From: Eledone cirrhosa
Taxonomy: Eukaryota
NCBI GenBank assembly: GCA_964016885.1
Contig: OZ024740.1
Location: 89,094,001 to 89,158,000 of the forward strand
Length of the DNA: 64,000 bases
Reading direction: 5' to 3'
Positions 1-62,633 of this stretch are shown here, one piece after another. Position 1 is the first letter of the stretch. The number at the start of each line of letters is the position of its first letter. Under the pieces are notes generated by a model that worked only from the letters and a program-made list of their open reading frames with translations, was not told the origin of the DNA and did not search any database. The translations under genes and the position numbers were made by a program.

Positions 1-2358
1 GATTGTTTTAGCAAGAAGCTAACGGCATTCTATAACATATATGCGACTATAACGTCAAGATGGGAAAAGTAGTTAACGAAAGATTTAGGAAAAATAACTC
101 AAACTAATCTCAAAAGAGAATCAGGATATAAATTCTTCCACAGAATTTAGTAAAATCCAGGGAAAAATCTATAGACCTTTAACTCATGATAAAATAAAGT
201 TTGAAACACTTATCCTTCAATTTGGAATAACATCAAATGCTCTGTATAGTCTTAAAAGACTATTTCATGAAAACTTTCAGTGGAGATGGTCACGGTTGGA
301 TTTCATTCATCAGCAGAGCTCAACAGAAACCAGTGCTCTCACAGTAGTATAATCCGAAAAAGGGAATTCTAAAGCTGGCTAGTTCGCCTTCATGTGTATT
401 TATGAAAAAGCACATGAGGAAAAGACGGGGCTAGTGACGTCAGGATGGAAGTGAATGTTTATTTACAAGAAATAGCAGTCAAATACATTCTGAAAAAAAA
501 CTCTACAAAGGAGTTCAGCAAAATAGCAATAATTATCACAGTTTTTATGAAAAAAACCGGGATTAGTCACAGATCGTTTAAGCACTCTAGGAAAAGAATC
601 CGAGTATAAATATAAATGAGAGGTATAGAGATTGTTTTAGCAAGATGCTAACGGCATTCTATAACATATATGCGACTATAACGTCAAGATGGGAAAAGTA
701 GTTAACGAAAGATTTAGGAAAAATAACTCAAACTCATCTCAAAAGAGAATCAGGATATAAATTCATCCACAGAATTTAGTAAAATCCAGGGAAAAATCTA
801 TAGACCTTTAACTCATGATAAAATAAAGTTTGAAACACTTATCCTTCAATTTGGAATAACATCAACTGCTCTGTATAGTCAAAAAAGACTATTTCATGAA
901 AACCTTCAGTGGAGATGGTCACGGTTGGATTTCATTCATCAGCAGAGCTCAACAGAAACCAGTGCTCTCACAGTAGTATAATCCGAAAAAGGGAATTCTA
1001 AAACTGGCTAGTTCGCCTTCATGTGTATTTATGAAAAAGCACATGAGGAAAAGACGGGGCTAGTGACGTCAGGATGGAAGTGAATGTTTATTTACAAGAA
1101 ATAGCAGTCAAATACATTCTGAAAAAAAACTCTACAAAGGAGTTCAGCAAAATAGCAATAATTATCACAGTTTTTATGAAAAAAACCGGGATTAGTCACA
1201 GATCGTTTAAGCACTCTAGGAAAAGAATCCGAGTATAAATATAAATGAGAGGTATAGAGATTGTTTTAGCAAGAAGCTAACGGCATTCTATAACATATAT
1301 GCGACTATAACGTCAAGATGGGAAAAGTAGTTAACGAAAGATTTAGGAAAAATAACTCAAACTAATCTCAAAAGAGAATCAGGATATAAATTCTTCCACA
1401 GAATTTAGTAAAATCCAGGGAAAAATCTATAGACCTTTAACTCATGATAAAATAAAGTTTGAAACACTTATCCTTCAATTTGGAATAACATCAAATGCTC
1501 TGTATAGTCTTAAAAGACTATTTCATGAAAACTTTCAGTGGAGATGGTCACGGTTGGATTTCATTCATCAGCAGAGCTCAACAGAAACCAGGGCTCTCAC
1601 AGTAGTATAATCCGAAAAAGGGAATTCTAAAACTGGCTAGTTCGCCTTCATGTGTATTTATGAAAAAGCACATGAGGAAAAGACGGGGCTAGTGACGTCA
1701 GGATGGAAGTGAATGTTTATTTACAAGAAATAGCAGTCAAATACATTCTGAAAAAAAACTCTACAAAGGAGTTCAGCAAAATAGCAATAATTATCACAGT
1801 TTTTATGAAAAAAACCGGGATTAGTCACAGATCGTTTAAGCACTCTAGGAAAAGAATCCGAGTATAAATATAAATGAGAGGTATAGAGATTGTTTTAGCA
1901 AGAAGCTAACGGCATTATATAACATATATGCGACTATAACGTCAAGATGGGAAAAGTAGTAAACGAATAATTTAGGAAAAATAACTCAAACTCATCTCAA
2001 AAGAGAATCAGGATATAAATTCATCCACAGAATTTAGTAAAATCCAGGGAAAAATCTATAGACCTTTAACTCATGATAAAATAAAGTTTGAAACACTTAT
2101 CCTTCAATTTGGAATAACATGAAATGCTCTGTATAGTCTTAAAAGACTATTTCATGAACACTTTCAGTGGAGATGGTCACGGTTGGATTTCATTCATCAG
2201 CAGAGCTCAACAGAAACCAGGGCTCTCACAGTAGTATAATCCGAAAAAGGGAATTCTAAAACTGGCTAGTTCGCCTTCATGTGTATTTATGAAAAAGCAC
2301 ATGAGGAAAAAACGGGGCTAGTGACGTTAGGATGGAAGTGAATGTTTATTTACAAGAA
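1..2358 (-). repeat. Tandem array of a 629-bp unit (~3.75 copies, runs off the window start), each unit carrying a hammerhead ribozyme
   Basis: GATTGTTTTAGCAAG recurs at 1, 630, 1259 and 1888; units are nearly identical; the array ends at (TA)n at ~2359. Confidence 0.97.
239..319 (-). ncRNA. Type I hammerhead ribozyme (further copies 868-948, 1497-1577, 2126-2206)
   Basis: Minus strand: stem I GCTCTG / CTGATGA / stem II ATGAAA...TTTCAT / GAAA / stem III TAGTC-ttttaa-GACTA / TA / stem I' CAGAGC. Confidence 0.88.
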
Positions 2359-2376
2359 TATATATATATATATATA

Positions 2377-2747
<371 letters not shown>

Positions 2748-3861: not shown

Positions 3862-3924
3862 ATTTTATCTGATGAAAGCATACCATAATTTAACTTGGTG
3901 TCCTTGAAATATGTATAATGAAAT
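3862..3924 (+). ncRNA. Minimal PLE-type hammerhead ribozyme in a solo pLTR remnant (~2900-4055)
   Basis: ATTTTAT / CTGATGA / imperfect stem II (atacc...ggtgt) / GAAA / tatgta / TA / ATGAAAT, overlapping an AATAAA; the region ends in (TA)n. Confidence 0.65.
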
Positions 3925-4054
3925 AAATTTGGTTTTATAAATATTGTTTCCATTTGTTAGTATATCGTATGTTTACTCCAATGATATGTTGAGTGCTTTA
4001 TATCAGTTATAAAAATATTTGCTTGTTGTATCCCAACAATATAAATAGAACTTC

Positions 4055-9437: not shown

Positions 9438-11610
9438 CATGATGATGATGGCTGCCACCTCGTTATCGAGTATGGCCATTGCACGAGGAGAAAAAAAAAA
9501 AAAAAAAAGAAATATATATATATATATACACATATACATATTCACATATACACACACACATATATACATTAATAACAATAATAATAATAACGACAACAAC
9601 AATAATAATATACATATACATATATATATATACACATACACGCACACACACAAACACATCTACACACACACACACACACACACACACGATAGCAACTAAC
9701 AGCGCTGCGATCGAATGTGGCTTTTTAGCCCAGCCAATGATCTAAAATGTATTGCACAGAGTCGGCAACCAAAACATTCACTGGGAATAGTCGGCTGTGG
9801 TTGGAGTTCGTGTACTTTTGCATGTCGCTTGAGCCCTCCTGCTGATTTACATTCTCTACCACATGTTTGGCAAGCATGATGAGTAGCATCTCCAGCAGCA
9901 GCCTGGTAGTCAACCACTGGTCTTACTTTATGACTGCGAAGATGACTTTCGAGTCCAGCTTTGCTTAGGCAGAGTCTCGCACAGACGCTGCTTATCAGCA
10001 CCATAGGGGGACCCTCGCCGTCTGGAAGTGCAACAGCAATGCCCTTCCTCACATCCCGCTTTACTTTCTCGTATGCGATTCGAGATGCCTCAAAGGCAAC
10101 TTTTCCCTCATATACAGTCTTTCTCCATTTATTACGATCAGCAGCAATATTTTCCCATGTATCAGCAGAGATGTTAGCGTCTTTCAGGGAGGCTCTCAAG
10201 GAATCCTTATACCTCTTTTTTGGTTTATGTGGCGGTCGTTTTCCTTTAACCAACTCTCCATAAAAGAGTTGTTTTGGTATTCTAGAAACCTTCATCCTGG
10301 CAAGGTGACCACTCCAACGGTGTCGTTGCTTAAGCACAAGAGCTTCTATACTGTCACACATAGAGCTTTCCAAAATCTCGACATCACTGATGTGGTCCCT
10401 CCAGTGAACGCCATGGATCCGTCTGAGATACATCTGATGGAAACGATCCAATTGCTTAAGGTGGTGTCGATATGTGACATAGGTCTCACAGGCATAAAGA
10501 AGACAAGAGAGCACACATGCCATGTACACCTTTACCTTTGTCCTCCTGCATATGTCTCGCCGACCCCAGAGTCGCCTTTCTAGCTTTCCGAAAGCATCAC
10601 TTGTTTTCCTAATCCCAAGTGAGATCTCACTGTCAAGGTTGCTGTATCGATTGACAATGCTTCCCAGGTAGACAAACTGATCAACCACACCAAGTCGTTT
10701 ACCATACACATAGATGTTTGGTTCAGTGTACTTCTTACCAGGGGCAGGTTGGTACATGACGACGGTTTTCTTGAGACTGACAGTCAATCCTAGGGCAGTG
10801 CAAGCGTCAGAAAATGCATTCAAAATGTGATGCATATCACTCTCTGTGTGCGCTACAAGATCGCAATCATCTGCATGCGAGAGGTCTCTTATGATTGATG
10901 TAAATACTTTTGTCTTTGCAGCAAAGTGCCTCATGTTAAATATGCTGCCTGAGGTTCGATATCGGATGTAAACACCATGTTCGCAATTCCTGAATGCAAT
11001 ACAGAAAACTATTGCAAAGTATATGGCAACAGGGTCGGTGGTGGAATATCCCCCTGTTTCACTCCATTTTTTACTGAGATAGGCTCCGACATGTTACCTC
11101 CGACATTAACCCAAGCCTTCATGTCGTCATGGAAAGACCTAACTAAAGCAAGGAACTTATCAGGGCAACCAAGTTTCTGGAGAACCTTCCATAATGCATC
11201 TCTGTTAACAGTATCGAAAGCTTTTGTCAGATCGACAAAAACCTGATACAGATCCAAGCCTTGTTCCATGCTTTTCTCCTGGAGCTGTCTAACTGAGAAG
11301 ATCATATCAGTAGTGCCGCGTCCAGCACGAGAACCAGATTGACTTTCAGGAAGAACACACTCTGAAATGTGTGTCAGCAGACGGTCCAGAAGCACCCTAC
11401 ATAAAACTTTCCCTACGACAGAAAGCAATGATATACCTCTATAGTTCCCACAATCATTCCTGTTACCCTTTACCTTGTACAAGACCACCATTACTGCATC
11501 TCTCCAGTCCTCAGGTAAGGATTCATTAGCCCATATCCTGCCAAGCAAAGAGTGAAGATGTTGCAGGAGTCTCTCACCACCATATTGTAGGAGCTCAGCA
11601 TGTATGCCAT

Positions 11611-11614
<4 letters not shown>
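9438..11614 (-). mobile_element. 5'-truncated RTE-clade LINE
   Basis: RT ORFs 11009-11614 and 9696-10934; 3' hairpin plus (CAT)n tail near 9440; truncated at a TA tract. Confidence 0.9.
9696..11614 (-). pseudogene. RTE reverse transcriptase, frameshifted, with three C-terminal C2H2-like fingers
   Basis: Motifs NYRGISLLS, FVDLTKAFDTV, GVKQG, HADD, FVYLGS; fingers such as CQTCGRECKSAGGLKRHAKVH. Confidence 0.92.
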
Positions 11615-11664
<50 letters not shown>

Positions 11665-11699
11665 AGATTTGAATGGATACAGTTTAGTTGAAAGGAATT

Positions 11700-11817
11700 T
11701 ATTGACACGTGTTTCTATAACAGTTACATAACCTAAAACAGCTGCTATCTACAAACTTTTAGTTATGCAGATATTCAATATTTCAATGTTATTATTTACT
11801 GTCATTTCATCAGAATA
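11700..11817 (-). ncRNA. Hammerhead ribozyme with an extended (~90 nt) stem II
   Basis: TATT / CTGATGA / ATGACAGT...ACTGTTAT / GAAAC-ACGT-GTC / AATA(AA); palindromic stem III loop. Confidence 0.7.
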
Positions 11818-12675: not shown

Positions 12676-13110
12676 TTATGTAATATTCGGCTTGTAGTGG
12701 GAAAAAAGGGTTTTAGTTCTGTGACGGCAGAATAATGTTCGTTCAATTCTGTTATTCAGCAGTTTCTTCTTGTGTGTGATTATGTAATAAATCTCAAGAT
12801 TATACAATTTGCAGAAATTTTGGCTCCTGGAAAAGCTTTGGGTTTTAGCTAATTTGTCCCATTTTAGGGTAAACTTTTGATCGCTATCCCTGAGCGTCCA
12901 AGCTTTTTCTGCTAAAGTTGTTACATTTCTTTGGCTCTGGTGTTTTATTGAGTAAGAATACCTATACAATCGAGATTTAAACGATGTTGCCGTTGATCCC
13001 ACGTAATACCACTCGTTGCCTCCGGATTTAATGGTACACTTATAAATAATATTTTTTTCCAGGCAGTTATTGCCGAGGGGGCAGTTGTCAGGATAGGTGC
13101 AGTTACAGTT
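12676..13110 (-). pseudogene. PLE GIY-YIG endonuclease with Cys-rich linker
   Basis: IIY...YVG motif and conserved R; ORF 12676-13002 plus upstream in-frame sequence. Confidence 0.8.
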
Positions 13111-13329
13111 GTGTACGTTGGGTTTTCTCTGGAGTAGTATTGCGGACGAACTTGGGTGTGGTTTATTTATGTTCTGTAGTGTATTGTCTACTGTTTTTTT
13201 TTTGTGTTCTTTGTACTTAAGTTTTTAGTGTTTTCGTTTAACCTTCTAGTATTGATCTTTTTTATGTGTTGTTCAAGGTTTAACGCTGTAGAGTATGACA
13301 GTCTTTATATTACAACACAACGGAAAATA

Positions 13330-13367
<38 letters not shown>

Positions 13368-13809
13368 CGTTTCTGAATTTGTTTAGCAAGATTCTTTATC
13401 TGAAATCGTGTGTTGAAACCGATATTGTTATACTTTGGGATGGTCATGTTGCCAATAAGAAACACACGCATCAGTTGCTTTCTCTTCAATTTATTATAAT
13501 AAATTTATAAATTTATAAATTTCTGGTTGGTTGGTTGGTTCCACAACCAGTTAGTTGTTTATATATAGTCATAGTTCTTTCTTTACACTCTGTGACCTCT
13601 TCAGTGACTGGGCATTCCTTTCTTTGTTTCTGTGCCTCTCCTTTGTTCTGTCCTACGCCATTTTGTTTCTGTGTGTGTGTCGTCTGCTCAGCCTGCGCAT
13701 GCGCCACATCCGGGTGTCTGTGTGTGTTTATGTTCATTTATTTATTTGTTTATTTACATGTTACTGGTTGGTTTTTTGTTCTATGTGTGTGTGTGTTTTC
13801 ATTTTGTCC

Positions 13810-16800
13810 TTAATTGTAAGTTGTGATTTTGCTGTTCCACTCATGTTTTCTATTTAATTTTGGTTGTAATTCTTTTATGTTTATTGCCTCTGTGATTTGT
13901 CTAAACATTGCGTCTTTTCTGTGTGTAGATTCTATTTTTATTTCTATCTTCTCTAATTTACCCTTGTGTTCTATTTTAGCATATAGGTAGAGTACAGATG
14001 ATTCTTTACTATCTTGAAGGTCTCGCCAGTGTTCATGTATCCGTTCCCCTACACTACGAGCTGTCTCACCTATGTACACTATATTTTTGTCTGTACATTG
14101 TCCTTCAGTAGATCTTATGCTATACACTACATTTCTAGTTTTACAGTTAATATGGGGGCTTATTTTACAGGTTATACATTTCTTATCTATACATGAGGGT
14201 CTTTGAGAAGGGTATGTCTTGCTAATAAGTGATTTTACGGAGGTACCTGGTCTTTCTACTATCTTAATTTTGAGTTTATGTTTATTTAGGGCCCTCTAAA
14301 TGTGTAAGCTAATTCACCTCTAGGGGTTGTATCGATGAACATTACACTCTGGTATTTATTGCTATAATACCATGAGTTTATTCTATCAGCCTTGTTCCTA
14401 GTTCTTTCTATTCTATTCCAAAATTTGCTCCTATACAAGGGGCAGTACCCATTTATGTCATTATTTACCATTTTTTCCCAATTGGTTCTGGCTCCTCTAT
14501 ACACTCTGATTTTATCTCTCTGATTGTAGCCAGAGAACTGCATACGGTGGATGAAGTGTTTTATGTGTCTCTCTAGTTCTTCGGGGTTGCACATGCGGGA
14601 CACATTTCTCATCACCCGTACTAAATCCTCAATCAGTATGTTGATTTCGGTATGGTCCGAAACGGCCGAGTTTCGGTGGATCAGATGTTTGGAAGTCATG
14701 GGTTTGGCATAATGGGAATGGAGGATTTGTTTTTTGTTATTAATGGTATCTAACCAGAGCTCTGTGTCTGGTACAGGTAATCGATGGTTGGGGTGTTTAC
14801 TTGGGTAGTCTATAGTAACTCTAATGCTCTGGAGGATGGAGTTAGCTATTTGCTGGATGCTTTCCATTGTTTTTTTTTTCTAGTTCCTGACTGTTCTCTA
14901 GTGGGGGTGTCTTAACTACGATGTTTATATCATCAACGTAGCGGGAGTACATTATCAGGGTTAAGGGGTCTTCTAATTGTTCTTTAAGTTTAAGTTTAAG
15001 TCTACTGTCCCACCATACCATGAATAAGTTAGCTATGTCGCCTGCAATGCTAACACCAATGGCTGCTCCTTCCTCTTGGGCATATGCTTTTCCATTAAAT
15101 TTGAACATATGTTCCTTAAGGGTTAATTTTATGCTGGCCCCTACCGCATGTGCAATCATTTTATTCAGTTCATCGTGGTTTTCGGGTGTCCGTATGACTC
15201 TGGTCCACCCGTTCCGTCTATCTGTGTGGGTTTTCTTGGCCATTGAGGTAATGGTAGGTGGTCTGCCTCTTGCTGGTTTTGTAGGGCACAGGTTGCTAAG
15301 GTCATATGTGTCTAGGTAATTATTACTATCAGTAAGTTTAAGTAGGAGTCCCAGCTCATTGGTATCAATCCCACGGAACTCAACATTGCTCTCACTGATC
15401 ATTTCTACGCATTTCTCTCCACAGCAAAATCCACGTCAATAGATGGATACAGGGACACAACATCCATACTATCTATTATGCAGTTTGTTAGGTCCCTAGA
15501 TCGGTTACTCACGCCGATTCTGCCGAGGAAGTCCTCTGTGCTGTCACATACATCTGGGGACATTTCAATGATGGGGCGTATGATCAGGGAGAGGAAGTAG
15601 GACAGTCTGTAGTTACTAGCAATGTTAGCTCCACAGACTGGCCGTGTTGGTGGTCCCGCGACAGGGTCACTGCCCGTTTTATGGTCTTTTCGAAGCCCAT
15701 ACAACGCCGGCACGTCTTTGTTCCAGGCCTGGAAGTTGTTGGCAGTCCTTTTGATGGGCTGCATTATATTCGTCCACATCACCATATGGGCATTGAGGGC
15801 TTTTTCTCTATCCTCATGCTCCTGTGGTGTTACCTCTCTTGTGTTAGTGATGTGAGGTTGCATTGCCTGGATGTAGTTTGGCAGGCTGTCAACCGACATT
15901 CTGCCAGACTTGTCTGTTGGAAAGCATGCTATCTCTCCATTACGCGAGCGCTGCATGAGCTTACGCAAGCCATTTGCAGATTTTTCTCCCAGTTGCTGGG
16001 CCTCCATTCTATTATGCTTCTTGCTATACTGTTCTATACTATTTCTAAGTTCGGATCTAGCTATACTAAATTGTGCTTCTGTTTGTTCATCGACTTGCGA
16101 CGGCAATTGGGTGCGTTTGTTAAATGGTAGAGTCGTGGCGTGGACCCGTCGCAGGTCGAACGATTTATCGGAGGGATTATAAAACGTAGAGTTCCAGGCT
16201 GCTGCTTTATATGTACTAGTGCTATTGTTATTGTTAGTTGTGTTGTTTCTATTTCTATTTCCACCAACAGCCTCATGGTTGTTTCTATGTCTCTCATAAT
16301 TACTCCTGTCTCTTTCCACTGGCTCATTGTTGTTATCTACCCTATTTTGTGTGTCCGTGTGTTCGTCTTGGTTATTTTCTTTGTCCTTAGTCTCCCTTCT
16401 CCTTTTAATCCTATGGCTTTCCCTTATTTCTGTGATTTCTGTGCTACTGTCATTACTTGTTCTCTGTTTCTGTGTGTTTGTTAAGATTGCGGTGGTGCTG
16501 GGAGGCATTGAATGTGTGTGTGTTGTTGTTGTTGATGTATGCTGTTGTTGATGTGTGTTGTTGTTGTCTCCGTGTGTGTTATTATTGTTGTGTGTGTTGT
16601 TATTGTTGTTTGTGTCTGCGTGTCTGTTGTTGTTGTTTCTGGGTATGTTATTATTGTTGTTGTTGTTGGTGTGTGTGTTGTTGCTATTGTTGTTTGTGTC
16701 TGTGTGTCTGTTGTTGTTGGGATGTGTGTTGTATATGTGTGTGCGTATATTGTTGCTTTTGTTTTTGTTTTTGCTTTTGAGGCTCCAGCGTAGTTTTGTA

Positions 16801-17549
16801 AATGATTTTTCTATTTCTGACAGACAACTAATCATATTTACCTTCTTGAATGTCGCAAATCGCGGGGGCAGACATAATACAGATAACTCATTGTCATCTA
16901 TTATTGTTTTGCCGTATATATTTGTGTTGTTGTTGTTGTTGAACTCATCCGTTAATGAGGTGTCGGCCATATTTATACCGTCAATTTTGTCGGGATATCT
17001 ATTGGTATTCTCTATAGTATCCTGATTTAGCGTTATCTGCTTAAGCCACTTTAGTTTCTTGTTAAAGTGCTTATCACATTCTTGAGTAATGTACTGTTCT
17101 TCAGGACGTATAAGGCTTATAAATATTAGTTTCTCTCTCGGTGTGGTGATCCTAGCTATTTCTTGTATTAGGTTTCGCTTATGTTTTTCTTGATGACTTA
17201 ATTCTCTATAGATCTTCTTTTTTATGTTTAGAATTAGTGTTCGTTTTAGCCTATCTGCTTGTTTTTTGGTGAGTTGTAATCTTCTTACGTCGGTGTTGAT
17301 GGTGTTGGTGTAAACTCGGGACGAGGCACATTCTTTTATGAAGTGTAGTTGTCGAGATGTTATGGTTTTTCGTAGACAAAAGAACATGGTGGTTTTCAGT
17401 ATCTTGTTAGCCTGGCTAAGGCTTACGATATTTCGTTTCTGAATTTGTTTAGCAAGATTCTTTATCTGAAATCGTGTGTTGAAACCGATATTGTTATACT
17501 TTGGGAGGGTCATGTTGCCAATAAGAAACACACGCACCAGTGCTTTCAC
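13810..17549 (-). pseudogene. PLE polyprotein split by frameshifts (ORFs 15405-17549, 14842-15402, 14286-14867, 13810-14127)
   Basis: PTDKSGR, LYGLRKDHK, PPTRPVC, DVVSLYPSI, GAAIG, RYVDD, HYAKPM; GIY-YIG VYIGETARSVGERIHEH. Confidence 0.92.
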
Positions 17550-17639
17550 TTCAATTTATTATAATAAATTTATAAATTTATAAATTTATAAATTTCTGGT
17601 TGGTTGGTTGGTTCCACAACCAGATAGTTGTTTATATAT

Positions 17640-17684
17640 AGTCATAGTTATTTCGTCACACACTCTGTGACCTCTTCAGTGACT
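17640..17684 (-). ncRNA. Minimal hammerhead in PLE pLTR (also 13567-13609 on minus, damaged; 18510-18554 on plus)
   Basis: AGTCA / CTGAAGA / g-GTCAC-agagtgt-GTGAC / GAAA / taac / TA / TGACT. Confidence 0.85.
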
Positions 17685-18683
17685 GGGGATTCCTTTCTTT
17701 GTTTCTGTGCCTCTCCTTTGTTCTGTCCTATGCCATTTTGTTTCTGTGTGTGTGTTTTCTGCACAGTCTGCGCATGCGCCACATCCGGGTGTCTGTGTGT
17801 GTTTATGTTCATTTATTTATTTGTTTATGTACATGTTACTGGTTGGTTGTTTGTTCTATGTGTGTGTGTGTTTTCATTTTGTCCTTAATTGTAAGTTGTG
17901 ATGTTGCTGTTCCACTCATATTTTCTATTTAATTTTGGTTGTAATTCTTTTATGTTTATTGCCTTTGTAATTTGTCTAAACATTGCGTCTTTTCTGTGTG
18001 TAGATTCTATTTTTATTTCTATGTTCTCTAATTTACCCTTGTGTTCTATTTTAGCATGTTGGTAGTGTACAGATGATTCTTCACTATCTTGAAGGTCTCG
18101 CCAGTGTTCATTTATCCGTTCCCCTACACTACGAGCTGTCTCAACTATGTACACTATATTTTTGTCTCTACATTGTCCTTCAGTACATCTTATGCTATAC
18201 ACAGAAAAGACGCAATGTTTAGACAAATTACAGAGGCAATAAACATAAAAGAATTACAACCAAAATTAAATAGAAATTATGAGTGGAACAGCAACATCAA
18301 AACTTATAATTAAGGACAAAATGAAAACACACACACACATAGAACAAACAACCAACCAGTAACATGTAAATAAACAAATAAATGAACATAAACACACACA
18401 GACAACCGGATGTGGCGCATGCGCAGACTGTGCACACAACACACACACAGAAACAAAATGGCGTAGGACAGAACAAAGGAGAGGCACAGAAACAAAGAAA
18501 GGAATTCCCAGTCACTGAAGAGGTCACAGAGTGTGTGACGAAAGGACTATGACTATATATAAACAACTATCTGGTTGTGGAACCAACCAACCAATCATAA
18601 ATTTATAAATTTATTATAATAAATTGAACTGAAAGCAACTGGTGCGTGTGTTTCTTATTGGCAACATGACCCTCCCAAAGTAT

Positions 18684-18734
<51 letters not shown>

Positions 18735-19509: not shown

Positions 19510-19570
<61 letters not shown>

Positions 19571-19790
19571 TAAAATAACAGATTAAAGTTTAAGCAAAGA
19601 ATCGCTGCTTTCACCCTTAACGGGATCTTCTAAAGACCCCGTTAAGGGTGAAAGCATCGATTCTTTGCTTAAACTTTAATCTGTTATTTTAATAAATATT
19701 TGCTCTACGGTTCTTATATATTTGATATATATTTTCCTTATCGAGCCCTCTTTGGATTTTAGTCTTCAATTTTATTATTATTACTATATA
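19025..19790. mobile_element. Nested inverted pLTR remnants of the CAGAAGA-HHR family
   Basis: ~19025-19180 is the reverse complement of ~19630-19790; inner hairpin ~19565-19700; homologous to 8015-8160. Confidence 0.75.
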
Positions 19791-29597: not shown

Positions 29598-32500
29598 CTA
29601 CAGGATGGTATACAGAGAAGGCCCATTTACACGAGCCATTCTCGCCACTATCACCCACCTTTCATAAAACTGCCTGTGGCCAAGCACCTCTCTCTCCATT
29701 CTTATCCTTCTTTCGAAGTGATATCGGAAGAAGTAGACCAGACTCTGGCCAGAGAGGAAGTTGCCTGACCTCAGACCTTTCAATCGTGTCCACCAAACAA
29801 CCTCTTTCAACATGGCTATTACGCACAGAAAAACCGCTTTTGCTTCCTTTGTGAAGAGGGGAGGCGGCTTGATTGTCATCACGGACTCGACGGTCAATTG
29901 AATCGGCGCCACCCGCGACAGCAGTCGTTCGGCGTAGCCCCACATATCAGCCACGCCCGGACATTGCCCCAATGCGTGCGCAACGGTTTCTTCGTGACGC
30001 ACGCATCTAGGGCAAATCCTTTTTGAGGGATCCCTGCCCGGGCGCCCGTGTCTGTAGAGCCTCTCTCGAACGGGTAGAGCCCCTCGGTAGCACTGCCAGG
30101 CCAGTGACTTCTGGAAGTTGTCCATTGGTCCTGGGCCGAAAGTCCTACCGAACAGGCTGGCGAGTTCGTCTTCCTCCATGTCTAGCGACTCTCCAATGGT
30201 GTCATCGCCCCTGCTAGCCACCAGCCCTCTATAGAATGATGAGGTGGATTCTCCACCGATGGCCTGGCCCGCTTGCCAGAGAGCCCTGAGCGCCTGAGCA
30301 CACTCAGTGTGCCAGTCTCCCAGTTTTCCGGATCTTTGCTTGACCCAGGACTGTAGCTCGGTGAGCGAGACGAGTCTCGGAAAGGCTCGTTTCACGAACG
30401 GAGCCCACACCGGTTGACCAGTGAGGAAAACCTGTAGGTGCCGTAGCCTTAATGCGTGCCTACGCATCATCAACCACGGCATCCCCAGCCCTCCTTTCGA
30501 AGGTTGTTGGCAGCAGATGGATCTTCTCACTATAGGAGGGCGCTTCTTCCAAAGAAATTGGAAGAGCATGTGTTCCATGGTGGTGAGTGTTTCCTTAGGG
30601 CAAGGCACGACAGTCAGGCGGTAGTAAGTGACGGACGCTATGTAAATGTTCGCCACCTCCGCCCGGCCTTTGAGGGACAGCTTACATTTGGCCCATTTCT
30701 GAGTTAGTGCAAACACCTTGTTCGTAACCTAGTTCCAGTTCTTTTCCACCTGGAGGTCCGGTCCAAACCAGACCCCAAGCAACTTTACCGGGCCCTCCGT
30801 CCAGTGTCCGACGACACCGTCGGGAGGCATCGGTCTGCCTCTCCACGTTCCGAGTTGCAGCCCGATGGATTTTTCCCGGTTCAGTTTCGCTCCTGACAAC
30901 CTTTCGTAATCCTCCAGTAAGGTACCGATCGCCTCGATCTCCGAGTCGGTCGATACCATTACTGTTACGTCATCGGCGTAGGCCGACACCGCTCGGCTCA
31001 ATCCTGGTTCCAGGGGGATACCCTGCAACAACTCCAACTTCCTCAGTAAAGGCTCGAGAGTCAATACGTACAGAAGGGAGGAGAGAGGGCACCCCTGTCG
31101 AATGGATCGTGTGATTTCGAACGGCTTCGAAAGGTAGCCGTTCACCTTGATCCTATAACAGATGTGGTTGCGATGTAAGGCAGTGATCCAGCCTCTGATA
31201 ACAGGACCGAACCCAGCCGCCGCTAGCACCGCATCCAGGTAACCATGGTCGACCCTATCGAAGGCCTTAGACTGATCCAAGTTGATCAGGGCCCCACCGA
31301 AGCCGGGTTTGTTGCTAACCCTCTCTATGATGTATCGCATGAGGTGGAGGTTATCGTGAATGGACCTGGATGGGATAGCACATGTCTGCGCATCTCCCAC
31401 CAGGCCACCCACGACAAGCGCCAACCTCTTTGCTAACACCTTGGCCAAAATCTTTAACTCTGTGTTTAGCAGGGTTATGGGCGGAAAATTATTTATACTA
31501 TCTCCCTTGTTCTCGTCCTTCCTCACCAGCGTGACTACGCCCTTGGCTACAGAACAAGGAATTCTCCCGTTCTGCTGCCAATTGCAGTAGACCGCTTCGA
31601 GGAGTTCGGAGAAGAAGACCGGCATTGCTAAATAAAGTTCGTAAGGTATACCATCGAGACCTGGACATTTGCGTCTGCTGCATTGGCTCAGCGCATCTCC
31701 GATCTCATCAGCCGAGATTGGTCTCTCGCAGGACTCTGCCTCTTCACCCGAGAGACGCGGCAGGCCGTCGAGGTATGGACCGAAATCCACGCCCCCGCCC
31801 GGACCCTCGCCTCCCCCGAACAATCGGGAAAAGTGCCTTTGAAAGGCCTCGCACATCTGCTTAGGCTCCCGGATCACCCGTCCATCTTCATCTTGCAACG
31901 ACCGGATGGTGGATCGATTTCCACTCTTAGCTTCTGTCACGCGGGCCCAGCCAACGGCCTTGGCCCCCTCATTACCTAGAGCACGTATTTTACTTCGAAT
32001 GACGCAGCCTTCGTGCTTTGCATCGAAAAACTGGTTCAAGGCCGTCCTCGATGCCAGCACTCTGGCCACATCTTCGCTCTTGATTGCCTCTTCTAATTTA
32101 CCTGTTAATTCTTTCTCGTTTCTATTCCTATCGGCAGCTAACATCTTGCTATAACTTATTGATTCTGTTTTAATCTCTCTTTTGAGAGATGCCCACCATC
32201 GGTTGTTGACGATTGCACCCGTCAACCTCTCCTTAACTAATCTGCTAATCCGGTTTCTGTAAGTCTCTTTTTCCGGTAAAGACAAATTAAGTTTCCAGTA
32301 ACCGGGACCCTGTTGATGTGTTTTCTCGAGATTGACTACGCAGGTCACTAATTTGTGATCCGTGTAGCCAACCGTGCGCATTTCTGGACAGCTTAATATG
32401 TCCCTATCCTTACTTCTAACTAAGAATCTATCTAAGTACGATCTAGATTGACCACTGTGGTTTCTCCAAGTCCAGGTAGGCACAGTTGGAAAATCTAGTC

Positions 32501-33035
32501 GATATCTATCGACCAAGTTAAAACGGTCGAGTAACTCCTTGAGGCTGTTACACCCCCCTCTATTAGGACATGCTCCTGCATAGTCCCAACGTGCATCTAG
32601 GATGTCATTCCAATCCTCCGCTAGAAGCAGGGAACGCGACGTTCCCAGAAAAGTCTCTAAACGCTGGAAGAAGTCGGGCCGTTCAGCTCCGAAAGGGGAG
32701 TAGACGGCGACCAGTCTTAAGGCCGCACCTTCACTACTACCAACGTCTAGCACCAACAAACGAACCTCCGGGTCCGAGTGCACAGCCTGTACGGCAAGAC
32801 CCAGGTGTTTTTGCAGCAGTACGACAACCCCACCCCCACCTCCAGGTTGACAGAGAGATGCATGCACCTCAAAGTCATCGAAGGTAGGGGCCAGCTGCCG
32901 CACGACGCTGATCCGAGTCCCACAGATAATCATTACATTTATACCACATGACCTGAGGTCATTTAGAAGCTTTGCTTGCTTCCAAGTTGAGCCCAGGCCA
33001 CGTGAATTTAAACATCCTACTCTTAACACATCCAT
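29598..33035 (-). pseudogene. ORF2: APE endonuclease, RT and zinc finger, with one in-frame stop at 30729
   Basis: NSRGL, SYLDRFLV, TDHKLV, PGLDG, DQSKAFDRV, IRQGCPLS, YADD, CPRC...ETVAHALGQC. Confidence 0.95.
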
Positions 33036-35055
33036 GTGGGCTGCAGAGCCAAAGGAGAGTGTAGAGACCTACCTTTCCGCTTCCCGGGGTTCGGGTCGCA
33101 CGACTTCCATGGGTCGGGGGTGTTGGGTGAAGGGGTGTCTTGTGGTGGTGTGGGGTCGTCAGCGTGTGGTGGGGTTGGGGTGTTTGGAGTTGTGTTGGGG
33201 AGGGGAAGGGGAGGGGAAAGCTTTTTAGTAGGACGCGGTTTATGGGTTTGACAGAGGGTGGTCCTACGTCCTCCTTAAAATCCTTTTTTAGTTTTTGGTA
33301 GAGGTTCATTGGGATCTTTATTAATTTTAAATGTGGGTAGTTTTCTGAAGAAACAAAGTTTACTCCTTCGGTTTGTACCGAAGGATTATTGTTTATGAGT
33401 TCATTTAACTTATTATTGTTTCTGTTGATGTAAGTATAGTGTAATGTCTTTTTTTCGGATGGTGTGAGTGTTTCGAAGAGGGGAGGGGAAGGTTTGGTTT
33501 TGTTTGTTGCTGGAGGGGTGTTTTCTGTTTTGTTGGATTGGGTTGCGATTTGGGTGGGGGTTGTTTGGCCTTGTGTGTTTTGCACATGTTTTCTTTTTTT
33601 CCTTTTAATCTGTCTGAAGGACTCCGTTTCTTCCTCCGAATTCGTTGGGTTATCTTCAGTGTTGGAGGGAAGAGGTATGTTTGCTGGTAATGTTTCCGTG
33701 TTGGTTTTCTTTGTGGGGGAGATGGATGTCACTATGTTAGACTGTGTTGTGTGTTGTGTCTGCGGTGGTTGTGTTGTTTTATTGAGTGAGGGGTTGGGTG
33801 GGCCTGTATTTTGTTTTGGGGTAATGTGTTGTGACTGTTTGTGTTGTGGTGGTGGTGTAGTTTTACTGAGGGACGAGTTGGGTGGGACTGAGTTTTGTTG
33901 TTTGTTTATCTGTTGTGGTGGTGGAGCTGGTGTTGGTAGCAGGGTTTTATTTTTGTTGAGTTGGGGACAAGCAGCCTTCAGGTGTCCTCTGCCTGCACAG
34001 ATATGACAGGACGGCCTTCTCCCCCCCCCCCACGCTAATGTTTATATACCCGTGGCCCTCTAATAGGATTCTGTCGGGTATTTGGGCGATGCGTTCAGGC
34101 TTCATTTGCACTACCAGCTCTATTCCTATTCCACTGAACGCATTGCCTGTGGTTTTCCCAATGGAAATCACGTTGTCATTCACTGGATCGATGAAGCCAG
34201 CTATGAGCCAGCAGTAGTCCACATCTGGCATCATTGCATTCAGCCATATGCGTTGAGTTCTTTTACCCATATAAGATCGATAAAAGGTAAAATTTTTCGA
34301 ACGAATCGGTGACAAAGCACATTTTTTTGCCGCCGATTCGTTCTTCATGATAATTGCTAGGCTTCCATACAGTCTGTCTTTTCTTATGAAAGTGGTTTCA
34401 TTAAGTACTTCTGTGAGTACTGTTTTGATATCTGCTTGAGAAGGCTGTTCAGGTTTTTTTGAAGTGTTGTTAATGGTGCGGAACACGACCGTTCGACTTT
34501 CAATGTCTTTGGTGAGTTCTTGAGGCATTTTTACCGATAAAATACCATTCTCTCCTTCACTTATGTATTGTTTGGCGTCTGTGATTCTTCGTGCCACATC
34601 TGAAATATTTTCGGCTACATATGTCAAAGATTTCTTTGTTGTTTGTGCAAATGAAATCTTGACTCTGTCGTCTGCTTTGCTTTCTGTTATGGTGTTATTT
34701 TCAAATGTTATTTTTGTGTTTGTTGTGTCTTTGTTTGTGGTGTTAGTATTGTCATGCAATTTTTCAAATTTTTTTTTTCGTTGTTGGAATCCATGTCCAG
34801 ATTTGTGTTTTCATCATTTATTTTCTCCGCAGATTCGTCTGTTTTTATTTTAATTTTTCCTTCCTTCTCTATGACGTTAGTTGGGAAGGAAAGGGGGACT
34901 AAAGCGTGCGAGCTTACAACTCTTACCGCTGTCCCCCCACCACTATTTTCGTTCTCTTCGTTTAACATTTCTGTCAGCCGATTGAACTTTTTTGCCACAA
35001 AATTTTTAAAAATAGGTTTTTCACCTCTAGGAGGGGTAAAGATGAGCTGACCCAC
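32959..35055 (-). pseudogene. ORF1 (frameshifted) with CCHC zinc knuckle
   Basis: ORFs 34708-35055, 33947-34759 and 32959-33732; after the C-run at ~34025 the alternate frame reads CHICAGRGHLKAAC. Confidence 0.8.
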
Positions 35056-42689: not shown

Positions 42690-43045
42690 TTTCCTTTTGT
42701 TTTCTAACGCATCCCGGGTAATAATATTTTATCAAAATATTGATACTGGGAATCCATCGATATGCCCAGCTCCTATCGATGTAGTGACGGAGTAAAACAC
42801 ACTTCAACAACATGTGTACCTTTCTTTCCCACACCAAATCGGACTGCCTGAAGAGGTCACAGACAATAATGGCTGTCACCAAAATATATATAGCAGTATA
42901 TTTATAATTTATAATAAACAAAGCCAAATTTTACATATTTGACTTAATTATTTTACATTACTCCGGAGTAAACAAACCAACCTGCATACTTCATCGAGTG
43001 CTCCAGTCTGCATACTGATGTGTCGGTAAACAACCAGCATATACT

Positions 43046-43139: not shown

Positions 43140-43825
43140 ATTTCATTTAGCTTTGTTGGTTTACCACTGGATAGAACTGGTCATTCCGTATGGTCAACCT
43201 CGATGTAATATTAGGGAGAGCACTCGACGTAATGCAACTTCGTTTGTGTTGTTGGTGGTGCGAGTACGGGGTTAATTCTTATAAAATAACAGGAGGCTGG
43301 ACTGGTGTAATTCCTTAAAGGTTTATTATACTATGAACATTTCAATGACCGCGTTCAATATGAATCCGGTGGCATCATCAGGTATTCAACATTTAACAAA
43401 GCAATATAATCCATGGGGCTGAAAAGGCAGAGAGATAAGAAGGCGGCCACACATTTAGCAGTTTCTAGTTCGGTCGGCCGTCTTCAATATTCACCTAATC
43501 GATTTCAGGAATCATTTCTCCATCTGAATGAAATTACAATTATCTTCAACTTATTTGCATATTTCCTTAGAAAGAAATGCCGGTCTTGTATAAAAGAAAT
43601 AGAACTAGTGCAGAAAGTGTGAAGGCGGCCGATCGAACTAGAAACTGGTAAATGTGTGGCCGCCTTCTTGTCTCTCTGCTTTTTCAGCCCCATGGATTAT
43701 ATTGCTTTGTTAAATTTCGAATACCTGATGATGTCACCGGATACATACTGATGAACCCGGTCATTGAAATGTTCATAGTATAATAAACCTTTAAGGAATT
43801 ACACCAGTCCAGCCTCCTGTTATTT

Positions 43826-43828
<3 letters not shown>
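43140..43828. mobile_element. Fold-back pLTR pair with HHRs and a captured local spacer
   Basis: Arms 43281-43486 and 43620-43828; TA tracts lie outside both ends. Confidence 0.85.
43721..43781 (+). ncRNA. Hammerhead ribozyme (mirror 43328-43385 on minus)
   Basis: ATAC / CTGATGA / tgtcACCGG...CCGGTcat / GAAA / tgttca / TA / GTAT then AATAAA. Confidence 0.8.
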
Positions 43829-48113: not shown

Positions 48114-50445
48114 AACATGCAGACGTCCACACATACCTGCCTCCTTTCTCCACGTCAACGATGTTTTCCAAGAGAAAGGCAATGACCGATACAGCTTGAC
48201 ACCAGTGACGTTGCAACTTGTTTCTACTGCTGAGTGAAAAAGAGCAACATGACATAAAGTGTCTTGCCCAAGGAGAAAACACAGTGTCCTGTATTGAAAT
48301 TGAACTCAAATCCTAAGCCATGCATCTCTTTATTATATAGTTACGATGCACTACTGATTTTATCTGAATTCCGATTACATTCTGGTTTCAACCATCAATA
48401 TCTACACATCATGGTAAATGGGGAATTCACGTGAATTATATTCGTTGAGATAATAAACTGTATTCTATTTTTTTGTTACTGTAACATTAAACTAAATATT
48501 TGGATACTATCAACATTATAGCAACACTCAGCTGGGTTCTATTTAGTACAATGACAAAGAAAGCTTAAGAAGCTATATTGTAAAGCCTATAAAAGTCAAT
48601 GATTATTGATATCGAAAGAAAATTCAAGAGTATTCAATTTCACTTTAAATAAATTATATGAATGGAACCTTAATTTTGAAACGTGTGCTGCTGACAGCTT
48701 TTGACTAGAGCTGAATTGCTGGCCATTTATAATATTTTAATGTCTTAAATATTGATAATTCAGTCAACGTAAGTGAAAGTCACCATGAAGTGAAATTACC
48801 AAAGCCCTGAACGGAAGCGGTCACCCTGTAAAAGTTTTCGTTTGCATTTTAATGATGGGATAAAATGTTTGTGTTTGTATATGGATTCCTTCCTGCTGAC
48901 TTGCCCCACAGCATGTGATGTGGCATTTACAATAGTTAACTTATATTATGGATATACAGACAACGAAGATAGCGAAAGTTGTCAACAGTCTTAAGTTATG
49001 AAAATTTTACATGGAACGTTTGCATTAGACATGAAGATCGGAAGGTAAGGGGAATGTCATATATAAAGAAATGTGAAGTACAATTTAAGTTTTTCCTAGA
49101 TTGGCTTTTAAATGAGTCAATTTAAATTTGATGAAGGATAAGAGATATTATGAGTGAGAAACCAATCTCAATGAGTTCAATAATTATATATCGAAAACAT
49201 AAAGAACTGAAAAACATTAAAAGGTTAAAACAATTGCTCGATCTTAGCCTACAGGTTAAATGGCCCGTCATCACAGTCTGCCTTCAGCATCAATTAAATG
49301 ACAGATAACGTTGTAAAGCTTATAACATGATGTATGGGTGTAGTAAGCTATGTAAACAAAAGGTTTCCAGCTGTCAACTTGGTTCAATATTTAACTTACA
49401 AAAGATGGATGGGCACTGAAGAAAGGCAAAACTAGCATATTTGACAACGATATTGCTTTAAATATGATGGCTAGAACAAATTAAAGCACTATAATATACA
49501 TACACAGACACTCATACAGAGACTCACACACATGCACACACACATGTGCATGCACCCCCATACATGCACTTCCATACGCGCTATGAATCACGAATATTTC
49601 TTTAATTATACGGTAACAGATGAGAGAATATTAGTTATAAATAAGAGGGCATGGTGGAATTATTCGTTTCTCATTACCGAGAAATTGTGTTCGCTGATAT
49701 TATGTAGCATATGAAGCAAACATTGATTTCTATATATTCTGTATTCGACCAGATCTTTGCGAATAGATAACGGGGACGGAAACTATGAAGATATTCTTAG
49801 TGTGGATTCTAGCTGTAGCACATTGGTGTAATCTTCTTAAACTGTATATCAAACTGAATTATCCTGAGAAGAGGTTATGGACCAATGCCATATAAAAAAA
49901 TAGTTATATATATGTCTTTATTGGTTGCAGATCAATGAGAAGGCATCAACAATATAACTAAATATTCGTGAAATAGCAAACAAAATGCTCAGACTCAAAT
50001 CATACCTTCAGTTAAAAAAATGAAAAATAGAAAAAGGATTCACGGTCTTAACGACAGTTCAAACTGCCACCTCTGTGAATTAAAAAAAGAATATATTGAT
50101 ATTCGACATGTGTAGATAATACAGAGGACTAGGTAAATCACCTTTCATTATTTCGAGGTTATATGAAATATTTTCTTTGTATCACACACAGATCATCGAA
50201 ACAAAAGTTTTACCCGAATCTGGTATTTATTTTATGGTCTGACGCCAGTTCCCTTTACACACACATATACTGATGCATACGTACACCTGCACACACAAAC
50301 ATTCATACCCCCCCCCCCAACACACACAAGCTGCCGTCTGGGTTAAACATGTTCCTATTACTCACTCTACTACCCTAAGTATTGAGTACTCTGGTGCGTT
50401 ATGGTCCATCTGTTTCCTTTGTTCTCTCTCTCTCTATCTCTCCCT

Positions 50446-52995: not shown

Positions 52996-53274
52996 AGTTT
53001 ATGTTGGTTGTATACCAACACCTCAGTATGCAGGCTGGAGCACTCAACGAAGTGCGCAGGTTGGTTTGGTTACTCCGGAGTAGTGTAAAATAAAGTTAAA
53101 TAAAAGTCAAATTAAGTATTGACAATATCATACACCTAAACAACATATGTACTTGTCTATACCATACTAATTCAAACTGCCTGAAGAGGTCACAGCCAAA
53201 GATGGCTGTCACTGAAATATATATAGCAGTAATAAACGAAGCTAAATTTTAATCATTTGACTTTTATTTAACTT

Positions 53275-54420: not shown

Positions 54421-54455
<35 letters not shown>

Positions 54456-54457
<2 letters not shown>

Positions 54458-57097
54458 TAATTTAATATATCAGCTAACATAGGCGCACAGATGCACGTCC
54501 ATGCCAGCAAATACACAGGTTATGTCATAATACCTAGGTGGTTCAATGCAGGAGGGTGCAGAACAATAATATAAAAGACGTAAGATAAGAAAATATTTTT
54601 TAAAAAAAATTTTTTAAACATTTTTTTTACTTACTTAAATTTTCACTCCAACTAATTAGTTTCTGCAATGGGATAAAGACAGTTACGTAATCCAACTGTC
54701 GAGAATTCATTGCGTCATCAGGGAGTCTATTCTCAGCTGAGTCTCCAGGCAATGCGCGGACACTGGCGGCTCATATAAAAATAATAATAATTCGGTAGAA
54801 AGAACAGCTTGCGAGGACTGGATTCTATGTACTGAAATTCTCACTGCTTCTAGTCAAATGGCCGATTCTAAAGAATCAATCACGTGACACAGAGGCTAGT
54901 TAGAAGGAATGGGATGGTAAGATGACTGACGCCTACTAACACCCCAAAAAAAATTTAGAAGTGGTTTTGGCAGGTTTGCTCGACAAATCAGTGATTTGGA
55001 GATAAATATAGATAATTTAATATATCAGCTAACATAGGCGCACAGATGCACGTCCATGCCAGCAAATACACAGGTTATGTCATAATACCTAGGTGGTTCA
55101 ATGCAGGAGGGTGCAGAACAATAATATAAAAGACGTAAGATAAGAAAATATTTTTTAAACAAATTTTTAAAAAATTTTTTTTTACTTACTTAAATTTTCA
55201 CTCCAACTAATTAGTTTCTGCAATGGGATAAAGACAGTTACGTAATCCAACTGTCGAGAATTCATTGCGTCATCAGGGAGTCTATTCTCAGCTGAGTCTC
55301 CAGGCAATGCGCGGACACTGGCGGCTCATATAAAAATAATAATAATTCGGTAGAAAGAACAGCTTGCGAGGACTGGATTCTATGTACTGAAATTCTCACT
55401 GCTTCTAGTCAAATGGCCGATTCTAAAGAATCAATCACGTGACACAGAGGCTAGTTAGAAGGAATGGGATGGTAAGATGACTGACGCCTACTAACACCCC
55501 AAAAAAAATTTAGAAGTGGTTTTGGCAGGTTTGCTCGACAAATCAGTGATTTGGAGATAAATATAGATAATTTAATATATCAGCTAACATAGGCGCACAG
55601 ATGCACGTCCATGCCAGCAAATACACAGGTTATGTCATAATACCTAGGTGGTTCAATGCAGGAGGGTGCAGAACAATAATATAAAAGACGTAAGATAAGA
55701 AAATATTTTTAAAAAAAAACAGTGAGAATTTCAGTACATAGAATCCAGTCCTCGCAAGCTGTTCTTTCTACCGAATTATTATTATTTTTATATGAGCCGC
55801 CAGTGTCCGCGCATTGCCTGGAGACTCAGCTGAGAATAGACTCCCTGATGACGCAATGAATTCTCGACAGTTGGATTACGTAACTGTCTTTATCCCATTG
55901 CAGAAACTAATTAGTTGGAGTGAAAATTTAAGTAAGTAAAAAAAATTTTTTTAAAATCTTTTTTAAAAAATATTTTCTTATCTTACGTCTTTTATATTAT
56001 TGTTCTGCACCCTCCTGCATTGAACCACCTAGGTATTATGACATAACCTGTGTATTTGCTGGCATGGACGTGCATCTGTGCGCCTATGTTAGCTGATATA
56101 TTAAATTATCTATATTTATCTCCAAATCACTGATTTGTCGAGCAAACCTGCCAAAACCACTTCTAAATTTTTTTTGGGGTGTTAGTAGGCGTCAGTCATC
56201 TTACCATCCCATTCCTTCTAACTAGCCTCTGTGTCACGTGATTGATTCTTTAGAATCGGCCATTTGACTAGAAGCAGTGAGAATGTCAGTACATAGAATC
56301 CAGTCCTCGCAAGCTGTTCTTTCTACCGAATTATTATTATTTTTATATGAGCCGCCAGTGTCCGCGCATTGCCTGGAGACTCAGCTGAGAATAGACTCCC
56401 TGATGACGCAATGAATTCTCGACAGTTGGATTACGTAACTGTCTTTATCCCATTGCAGAAACTAATTAGTTGGAGTGAAAATTTAAGTAAGTAAAAAAAA
56501 TTTTTTAAAAATTTTTGTTAAAAAATATTTTCTTATCTTACGTCTTTTATATTATTGTTCTGCACCCTCCTGCATTGAACCACCTAGGTATTATGACATA
56601 ACCTGTGTATTTGCTGGCATGGACGTGCATCTGTGCGCCTATGTTAGCTGATATATTAAATTATCTATATTTATCTCCAAATCACTGATTTGTCGAGCAA
56701 ACCTGCCAAAACCACTTCTAAATTTTTTTTGGGGTGTTAGTAGGCGTCAGTCATCTTACCATCCCATTCCTTCTAACTAGCCTCTGTGTCACGTGATTGA
56801 TTCTTTAGAATCGGCCATTTGACTAGAAGCAGTGAGAATTTCAGTACATAGAATCCAGTCCTCGCAAGCTGTTCTTTCTACCGAATTATTATTATTTTTA
56901 TATGAGCCGCCAGTGTCCGCGCATTGCCTGGAGACTCAGCTGAGAATAGACTCCCTGATGACGCAATGAATTCTCGACAGTTGGATTACGTAACTGTCTT
57001 TATCCCATTGCAGAAACTAATTAGTTGGAGTGAAAATTTAAGTAAGTAAAAAAAATTTTAAAAAAATTTTTTTTTAAAAATATTTTCTTATCTTACG

Positions 57098-57103
<6 letters not shown>
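54456..57103. repeat. Tandem array of a 555-bp unit that switches orientation at ~55720; both ends in (TA)n
   Basis: Unit starts at 54456, 55011 and 55566; inverted phase at 55721, 56276 and 56831. Confidence 0.97.
55840..55921 (+). ncRNA. Type I hammerhead in each 555-bp unit (+: 55840, 56395, 56950; -: 54645-54726, 55200-55281)
   Basis: ACTCC / CTGATGA / GCAATG...CATTGC (inner GACAGTT/AACTGTC hairpin) / GAAAC-TAATTA-GTT / GGAGT. Confidence 0.87.
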
Positions 57104-57139
<36 letters not shown>

Positions 57140-57142
<3 letters not shown>

Positions 57143-62126: not shown

Positions 62127-62166
<40 letters not shown>

Positions 62167-62344
62167 CATGCATCTATATATATGTCTGTGTGTGTTATTA
62201 ACACAGATTAAAAGTTTAACCAACCAATTACTACTTTCAACCCAAAGCGCCATCATCTCAAACTTATGTATATATAACCCGGATTGGATTCTCTCACAAT
62301 GTTGGTCTTTGTATTTACTGTTACTGCTATATATCTAATCTCTG

Positions 62345-62412
<68 letters not shown>

Positions 62413-62590: not shown

Positions 62591-62633
<43 letters not shown>

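Follow-up and report, generated by a model that had tools for sequence, protein, structure and literature searches.

A covarying bulged hairpin lies just beyond both kinds of copy end in Hydra-clade Penelope-like elements

The stretch analyzed here (hereafter the window) comprises 64,000 nucleotides of the 3.0-Gb genome of Eledone cirrhosa and is rich in (TA)n and in fragments of Penelope-like elements (PLEs), the sister group of telomerase reverse transcriptases (RTs). The C-terminal GIY-YIG endonuclease of a Hydra-clade PLE, with its CxCx5C linker, is located at 12676..13224 on the minus strand (hammerhead core at 11781-11813, same strand), and a Neptune-type PLE, which serves as a contrast case, occupies 13362..18691 on the minus strand; its two ends are located 60 nt apart inside the N-terminus of the open reading frame (ORF), without a hairpin. 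ORFs at 9696-11683 and 29598-34810 presumably represent RTE-like and L1/Tx1-like non-LTR elements, respectively, as labeled from their translations, and a putative Helitron-like helicase fragment at 63116-63586 lies beside a 1.57-kb palindrome (61595-63164). The window also carries non-coding tandem repeats with units of 629 and 555 bp; the latter form a retrozyme-like hammerhead array (54447-57107) with a fold-back at 55717 and one array end before each of two hairpins.

The original prediction had listed seven sites sharing a TACTC...GAGTRC stem downstream of a hammerhead ribozyme, and six of these are members of one bulged hairpin of Hydra-clade PLEs with the consensus 5'-RCUC-[inner stem]-loop-[inner stem']-UH-GAGY-3'. 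The conserved unit consists of a 4-bp stem, a 2-nt bulge on the 3' side (TT, TC or TA) and an inner stem; loop lengths vary from 2 to 63 nt, and the hairpin is common to dozens of otherwise dissimilar PLE families. In family A, the 629-bp tandem non-coding repeat, it is located at 584..605 on the minus strand (ACTC-GGA..TCC-TA-GAGT) and is repeated at 1213-1234 and 1842-1863. In family B it lies at 2421..2439 (minus strand), at the base of the tail of a fold-back (head-to-head) insertion at 2462..2623 with hammerhead cores at 2510-2533 (minus) and 2553-2576 (plus), the plus arm of which ends tail-less at (TA)n. The remaining listed members are those of family C (3975..3994, plus strand; hammerhead core at 3869-3909), family F (19702..19746, plus strand, GCTC..TC-GAGC; fold-back at 19563-19699), family D (42960..42999, plus strand, inner stem CGGAGT/ACTTCR; second copy at 53042-53081, minus strand) and family E (43222..43272, minus strand, ACTC-CGTA..TACG-TC-GAGT in most copies; fold-back at 43281-43828). 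A further abundant family, absent from the earlier list, has its hairpin at 50364..50387 on the plus strand (cluster 0), and the 555-bp repeat carries two, at 56002..56025 (plus strand, with compensatory GTTC/GAAC and an array end 4 nt before it) and at 56119..56143 (plus strand, with the other array end at its base; hammerhead at 55841-55920).

All five TACTC...GAGTRC sites occur at the positions predicted, as does the GCTC...GAGC site of family F, which is on the plus strand. TACTC...GAGTRC matches are enriched over background, with 10 in the window where 100 shuffles averaged 0.93 and never exceeded 4, three of the 10 being tandem copies of one unit and two (42959 and 53040) belonging to one family; another, at 45173, has neither inner stem nor element context and is probably a chance match. 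Paired arms are kept as had been proposed; the first T:R pair is not conserved across families. The outer position reads TG in 5, AA in 5 and TC in 4 of 26 hairpins of this genome, and TA in 20, CA in 17 and AA in 8 of 60 hairpins from other samples, with other combinations in the rest, and a simple 5-bp TACTC/GAGTR stem was rejected. For the site placed at 43220-43266 the hairpin is real, with its 5' arm being an ACTC six bases further upstream, which 16 of 19 other copies retain and which has mutated in the window copy. The seventh site, TACTCG...CGAG in a tRNA-headed element, does not fold as the claimed stem and was rejected as a member; it is located 85-110 nt before the tail-less end of that element, and pattern scans showed no hammerhead core nearby. 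Folding energies of single hairpins are marginal (z of 0 to -1.4 for five of the six window sites).

The predicted location downstream of the ribozyme was borne out, with a hammerhead core, intact or degenerate, 47-73 nt upstream of the sites of families B, C, D, E and F, and approx. 260 nt upstream of the hairpin in the 629-bp unit. The latter contains a type I hammerhead with full stem III at 868..948 on the minus strand (a reading of the sequence that scores below the Rfam gathering threshold), with further minus-strand copies at 239-319, 1497-1577 and 2126-2206. Hammerhead cores in the window were located by pattern scan; at gathering score, Rfam covariance models run over the whole window matched only a tRNA and no hammerhead or hairpin. 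In five loci from other samples, searched to an E value of 5, Rfam returned hammerheads on the minus strand and otherwise only sub-threshold matches, with Hammerhead_1 found twice in one locus (L225) and the hairpins unmatched.

Six full-length copies of one family (L170-L175) were fetched, each with a 785-codon frame encoding an RT with a C-terminal GIY-YIG domain and RWK and DKT motifs. This family is very young (150 scored matches, those listed being 98-100% identical, with several intact 785-codon frames), and its UTR contains internal (TA)n/(TG)n tracts. In Craig et al. 2021 (PMC8557442) the Hydra clade is described with a GIY-YIG endonuclease with CxCx5C, RWK and DKT, a hammerhead in the pLTR and (TA)n targets. 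Protein P0001 shows the CxCx5C linker, RWK and DKT and lacks the CCHH cysteine pair, all marks of the Hydra clade under the definitions given there, and the hammerhead in the pLTR, the insertion at (TA)n and the tandem or fold-back copies with an optional tail also agree. By match to these published motif definitions, the elements are Hydra-clade PLEs. Hydra ORF ends or starts are linked to the hairpin in families B, C, F, the 50364 family, c9, c16, c18, c19 and L086/L027; an ORF start follows the long end in 17 family B loci, the endonuclease lies upstream in three family C loci, family F is linked to both an endonuclease and an ORF start, and the 50364 family is linked to an endonuclease in L106. 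No physical link to a Hydra ORF was seen for families A, D, E and the 555-bp repeat. The families had been called unrelated, a description that does not hold, as those that could be linked all belong to the Hydra clade of PLEs, and the Neptune-type family of the window lacks the motif.

Full-length elements show the order hammerhead, short end, hairpin, long end, second hairpin, ATG, with the first hairpin starting approx. 160 nt upstream of the ATG and an in-frame stop 36 nt before it. Coding conservation, which had been named as an alternative cause of the similarity, is thus excluded, as the hairpin precedes an intact 785-codon ORF, in its 5' UTR, a stop separates the hairpins from the ATG, and inner lengths fall in all frames.

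The position of the hairpin relative to copy ends was assessed in this genome. Among 30 loci of family C, 3' ends at (TA)n are of two kinds, either after an 87-nt tail or just before TACTC, and these represent the optional PLE tail described in PMC8557442. Fold-back insertions were gathered blind to the motif from the window, 85 evenly placed 10-kb stretches, 2 adjoining stretches, 12 targeted stretches and 3-kb loci around search matches, the latter over-representing families A, B, C, E and c9 as well as the tRNA element. They formed 61 clusters, in 32 of which a tail ends at (TA)n. A descriptor (NYTC-[inner stem of at least 2 bp]-loop-[inner']-TH-GR(N)N, starting at most 25 nt from the short end in at least half of the members) matched the tail-less (short) end in 22 of these 32 clusters, where clusters 4, 6 and 47 are doubtful positives, negatives 13, 15 and 18 carry a recognizable variant, and the test is not fully out of sample as the descriptor was drawn from part of the data of this genome. 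The reverse complement gave 2, the upstream arm 2, and 30 shuffles a mean of 0.9 (maximum 3); families are related by descent, and family counts are therefore not independent events.

Modal short ends, after extension through TA microhomology, are mostly located 1-6 nt before the stem. In family A, 13 of 17 ends abutting (TA)n map just 5' of hairpin 1; in family C, 31 of 34 short ends are located 2 nt before the arm; in family B, offsets vary from 5 to 12 nt, tracking TA microhomology. Median TA microhomology is at least 3 nt in 19 of 27 families, as compared to 17% of background positions, and UA runs elsewhere in these 5' UTRs seldom serve as ends. The original proposal of a cis-acting signal of PLE retrotransposition thus has strong positional support, with the hairpin 1-6 nt beyond copy ends both in this genome and in relatives from elsewhere; of its wording as an RNA signal for the RT, the cis-acting position stands, and action on RNA and on the RT is what we infer.

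A second copy of the hairpin usually follows the long end, starting 0-10 nt past it in family F (L106), c8, c9, L072, L117 and the 555-bp repeat, and begins approx. 40-60 nt before the ATG; tails in this genome are approx. 60-180 nt long. Family A has a possible minimal second hairpin with one inner pair (500..514, minus strand), before which none of the 17 ends was seen to lie. The long end of family B is precise and is followed only by AGCACTC, which resembles the 3' half, without a second hairpin; a search with only TTTAGCACTC at this end found at least 40 near-identical copies linked to an ORF. Fold-backs of the motif families join a long to a short end in 97 cases, two long ends in 2 and two short ends in none; for families never used as queries these numbers are 52, 2 and 0 (121 long and 114 short ends), and one short-short fold-back was found by another method. 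Fold-backs of the Neptune family, which lacks the motif, are long-short in 5, long-long in 1 and short-short in 0 cases; the coupling of long and short ends is thus general to PLEs and does not depend on the hairpin. In the one Neptune-type family available (cluster 5) the descriptor matched 1 of 7, this one being a long-range chance fold.

Relatives from other samples were retrieved with a 70-protein alignment, which yielded 77 metagenome loci (from the best 80 of 377) together with 21 loci from a genome collection, the latter presumably contaminants of eukaryotic origin; 96 loci were analyzed, L286-L287 being left out as their matches were to bacterial RTs, and a search of viral contigs showed no relatives. 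Hydra PLEs were also observed on contigs of bacterial genome bins (L267-L285), most likely as host contamination. The descriptor matched 35 of 56 regions before the ORF (5' UTRs; reverse complement 4, shuffles 1.7) and 21 of 45 regions following a hammerhead (reverse complement 7, shuffles 1.95). The strongest signal was a 3' 8-mer, TTGAGCAC, present in 35 of 59 collapsed families (0.2 expected), and the only enriched class of bulged hairpin was that with a 2-nt bulge and UC/GA (29 vs. 8 vs. 3 of 59 families). Two hairpins, 54-83 nt apart, occur in 15 of 43 hairpin-bearing external families. When the 3' pLTR was mapped on the 5' copy in 36 loci, 17 ends were usable, lying upstream of the ATG and clear of the contig ends, and 11 of these are located within 4 nt of a hairpin; of the remaining six, three have GCTC at +4 and a weak inner stem and three have neither. 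Among the six new Hydra consensus sequences published in PMC8557442, judged by eye, the hairpin is clear in three (Hydra-2_Amil, Hydra-2_Ajap and, twice before the ATG, Hydra-1_Ajap), imperfect in two and absent in one. Three 8-mers searched in the accessible part of the supplement of Craig et al. had 11 of 15 matches in the Naiad/Chlamys files, with no obvious hairpin by eye.

Covariation was taken from anchored counts, as the 5' arms came out misaligned in a MAFFT alignment (A2). Anchors were selected without regard to inner pairing; an NCTC lay upstream of 73 of the 79 3' words, and inner pairs 1, 2 and 3 are Watson-Crick in 72, 51 and 42 of these 73 cases, as compared to shuffle means of 39.8, 22.3 and 18.8 (maxima 56, 40 and 31); inner pair 4 is at chance. 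The covariation that the original prediction had suspected is therefore present, as inner pair 1 is kept by compensatory change. Outer pairs also vary, the outermost being G-C, A-U or U-A and the next C-G or U-A. A purine precedes the bulge in 58 of 60 external hairpins and 21 of 26 of this genome, and U is the first base in 36 of 38 two-nt bulges found with a relaxed descriptor, the original descriptor partly imposing this U. The single-stranded flank ACUNU did not pair with upstream sequence (0 of 53, 3.6 expected). Overall, the hairpin is a real, covarying, clade-wide cis-element at both end types of Hydra PLEs. Evidence that it acts in the RNA sense strand is weak: the ratio of G.U to A.C is 13:5 at inner pairs 1-3 of external hairpins (12:7 and 3:4 in another count), and in most comparisons folding of the antisense strand equals or surpasses that of the sense strand (lower for sense in 17 of 58 and in 9 of 24).

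The PLE protein studied by Frangieh et al. 2024 (PMC11167929), PAc from an Anolis Poseidon element, initiates internally in vitro at two sites bounding the tail, extends both target strands, and is described with AT-rich targets and an AC-rich stem-loop. Taken together with the end positions observed here, this makes anchoring the simplest reading: the hairpin probably holds the Hydra RT-endonuclease on the transcript, and reverse transcription would start internally 1-6 nt 5' of it. The element protein would bind the hairpin in the transcript and nick a (TA)n target, and the nicked (TA)n would pair with UA-rich template over 2-5 nt immediately 5' of the stem. A tail-less end would result from priming before hairpin 1 and a tailed end from priming before hairpin 2, and a single event using both sites on opposite target strands would produce fold-backs with one end of each kind. 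Each anchor would fall outside the segment that its own site copies, and transcripts with both signals would therefore come only from copies that are tandem or carry a pLTR. Several observations speak against anchoring: family B is active and yet has a long end without a second hairpin, the Neptune family has two ends without a hairpin, the strand evidence is weak, and single hairpins have marginal folding energies. For template recognition by PLEs and the cause of their optional tail, the element offers a 25-nt motif in which the invariant and covarying positions are defined and which sits within a few bases of either copy end, making the tail testable by mutation; it may also provide a compact handle for loading a chosen RNA on a PLE RT.

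Among the alternatives, a signal acting at the DNA level, either as a hairpin in single-stranded cDNA or as a site in duplex DNA, is one we regard as unlikely. After one priming and fold-back synthesis, the hairpin would stop synthesis or direct GIY-YIG cleavage and so produce the tail-less end. Such a role would fit the resolution by endonuclease to which PMC8557442 ascribes the tail (the main text does not mention "hairpin"), and the Penelope tail, as cited in PMC11167929, is needed for endonuclease recognition of plasmids; the weak wobble test, the equally good folding of the antisense strand and the quasi-palindromic GAGYRCTC of many copies point the same way. Against it, the presence of one hairpin at an equally short distance past either end type favors one reaction at both, loops of such variable length and covarying inner stems disfavor a duplex binding site, and only 32 of 60 retain the last C of the palindrome.

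Another alternative is that the hairpin directs RNA cleavage or termination immediately 5' of its base, with ordinary priming from the new RNA 3' end; this would predict the same geometry as anchoring, and the conserved single-stranded ACUNU flank could be a determinant for a nuclease or other protein. We consider this improbable, as offsets within a family vary with TA microhomology (as in family B) and internal initiation by the Poseidon protein occurs in the absence of an RNA end of this kind (PMC11167929). Equally improbable in our judgment is that the hairpin is only a site of RNP assembly (cis-recognition), with the nearest UA run setting the start and the sequence of the 3' arm and flank outweighing the fold. 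The 3' half retained alone at the family B long end, the strength of the 3' 8-mer and the near universality of TA microhomology would all fit this role; the compensatory changes at inner pair 1 and the rarity of ends at other UA runs of the UTRs argue against it. A role in the 5' UTR as translational operator or host-protein site, with the end position secondary, would suit the distance of hairpin 2 from the ATG and is very unlikely, as the hairpin is kept in the non-coding 629- and 555-bp tandem units and copy ends follow it to within a few nt.

Within the anchoring reading, a more speculative step concerns the bulge. In the arginine sandwich of HIV TAR and 7SK ASM3 (Pham et al. 2018, PMC6189040), U23, G26, A27-U38 and G28 are named for the triple and arginine contacts. 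The Hydra hairpin likewise shows a Watson-Crick purine, a bulged U (plus one nt) and then G-A-G paired with C-U-C, and its invariant positions coincide with those named residues; it differs from TAR/7SK in having its bulge on the 3' strand and its loop at the opposite side. By this analogy, the invariant bulge U and the adjacent G-C and A-U may form a TAR-like U.A-U triple that binds an arginine, and the resemblance could also be convergent or due to chance. An RxR in the first helix is nearly invariant (R35 in 90% and R37 in 100% of alignment A1), which makes R35 and R37 candidates for the sandwich, and a predicted structure of the aligned Hydra family (AlphaFold, pLDDT 92) shows a TERT-like fold with TERTs as the best structural matches. 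It is possible, if tentative, that Hydra-clade PLEs use twin arginine-sandwich hairpins of this kind, with a protein dimer bound to both priming two cDNAs on opposite strands of one (TA)n. If true, this would explain the PLE tail, fold-backs with one long and one short end, the need for tandem copies and which retrozymes the Hydra clade mobilizes.

Small RNA structures place an RT on its template in several systems, including LINE/R2 3'-end structures, HBV epsilon and the template-boundary stem of telomerase. These are located 5' of the start or contain it, whereas the Hydra hairpin is located 3' of the start and, unlike them, would not be copied from its own site. As in PAc, there are two tail-bounding sites and AT-rich targets; the PAc sites are inside the ORF, within the AC-rich stem-loop, whereas the Hydra sites are in the 5' UTR, just 5' of twin hairpins. 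The letters of Fig. S1 of PMC11167929, in which the text order is uncertain, contain no CUC/GAG bulged stem, and this sole in vitro study of a PLE defines only a 172-nt region. The elements described here agree with the Hydra clade of PMC8557442 in endonuclease marks, hammerhead, (TA)n targets and fold-backs tailed at one end; the tails reported there are 30-40 nt long as compared to those of approx. 60-180 nt in this genome. No description of the hairpin was found in the papers searched. Like the metazoan non-LTR retrozymes (PMC7229834, PMC7761336, bioRxiv 10.64898/2026.07.22.740005), the 629- and 555-bp units are non-coding tandem repeats with type I hammerheads. Retrozyme repeats are reported in PMC7761336 to show no conserved motif pointing to a mobilizing element, whereas the units observed here carry the Hydra hairpin, which thus represents a sequence tag for assigning non-coding hammerhead repeats to a mobilizing clade.

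Other families with PLE-like ends were also observed. A 272-bp tandem non-coding element with a tRNA-Ser(GGA)-like segment (57142-57524 in the window; loci L309-L327), with 2238 candidates in the source genome, inserts in PLE style, with (TA)n targets, long plus short ends in 7 of 7 fold-backs and a tail of approx. 35-45 nt. Pattern scans showed no hammerhead core in it; at its short end a TTTC/GAAA stem matches the descriptor in 4 of 8 events, although its fold has a bulge of 1 nt, and there is a weak resemblance between its tail and that of the Neptune element (7 of 1000 shuffles). It is a possible PLE-mobilized tRNA SINE, for which no matching title was found in the literature search. Families at L024:1788-2155 and L154 (end clusters 303/263) have 40-nt tails that share CACAATGCTTCAAG and lack the hairpin, possibly representing another PLE clade, and two two-ended families (L023:2108-2374 and L304:319-898) start their tails with a different hairpin, ACTY-GTGT-nnn-ACAC-CT.
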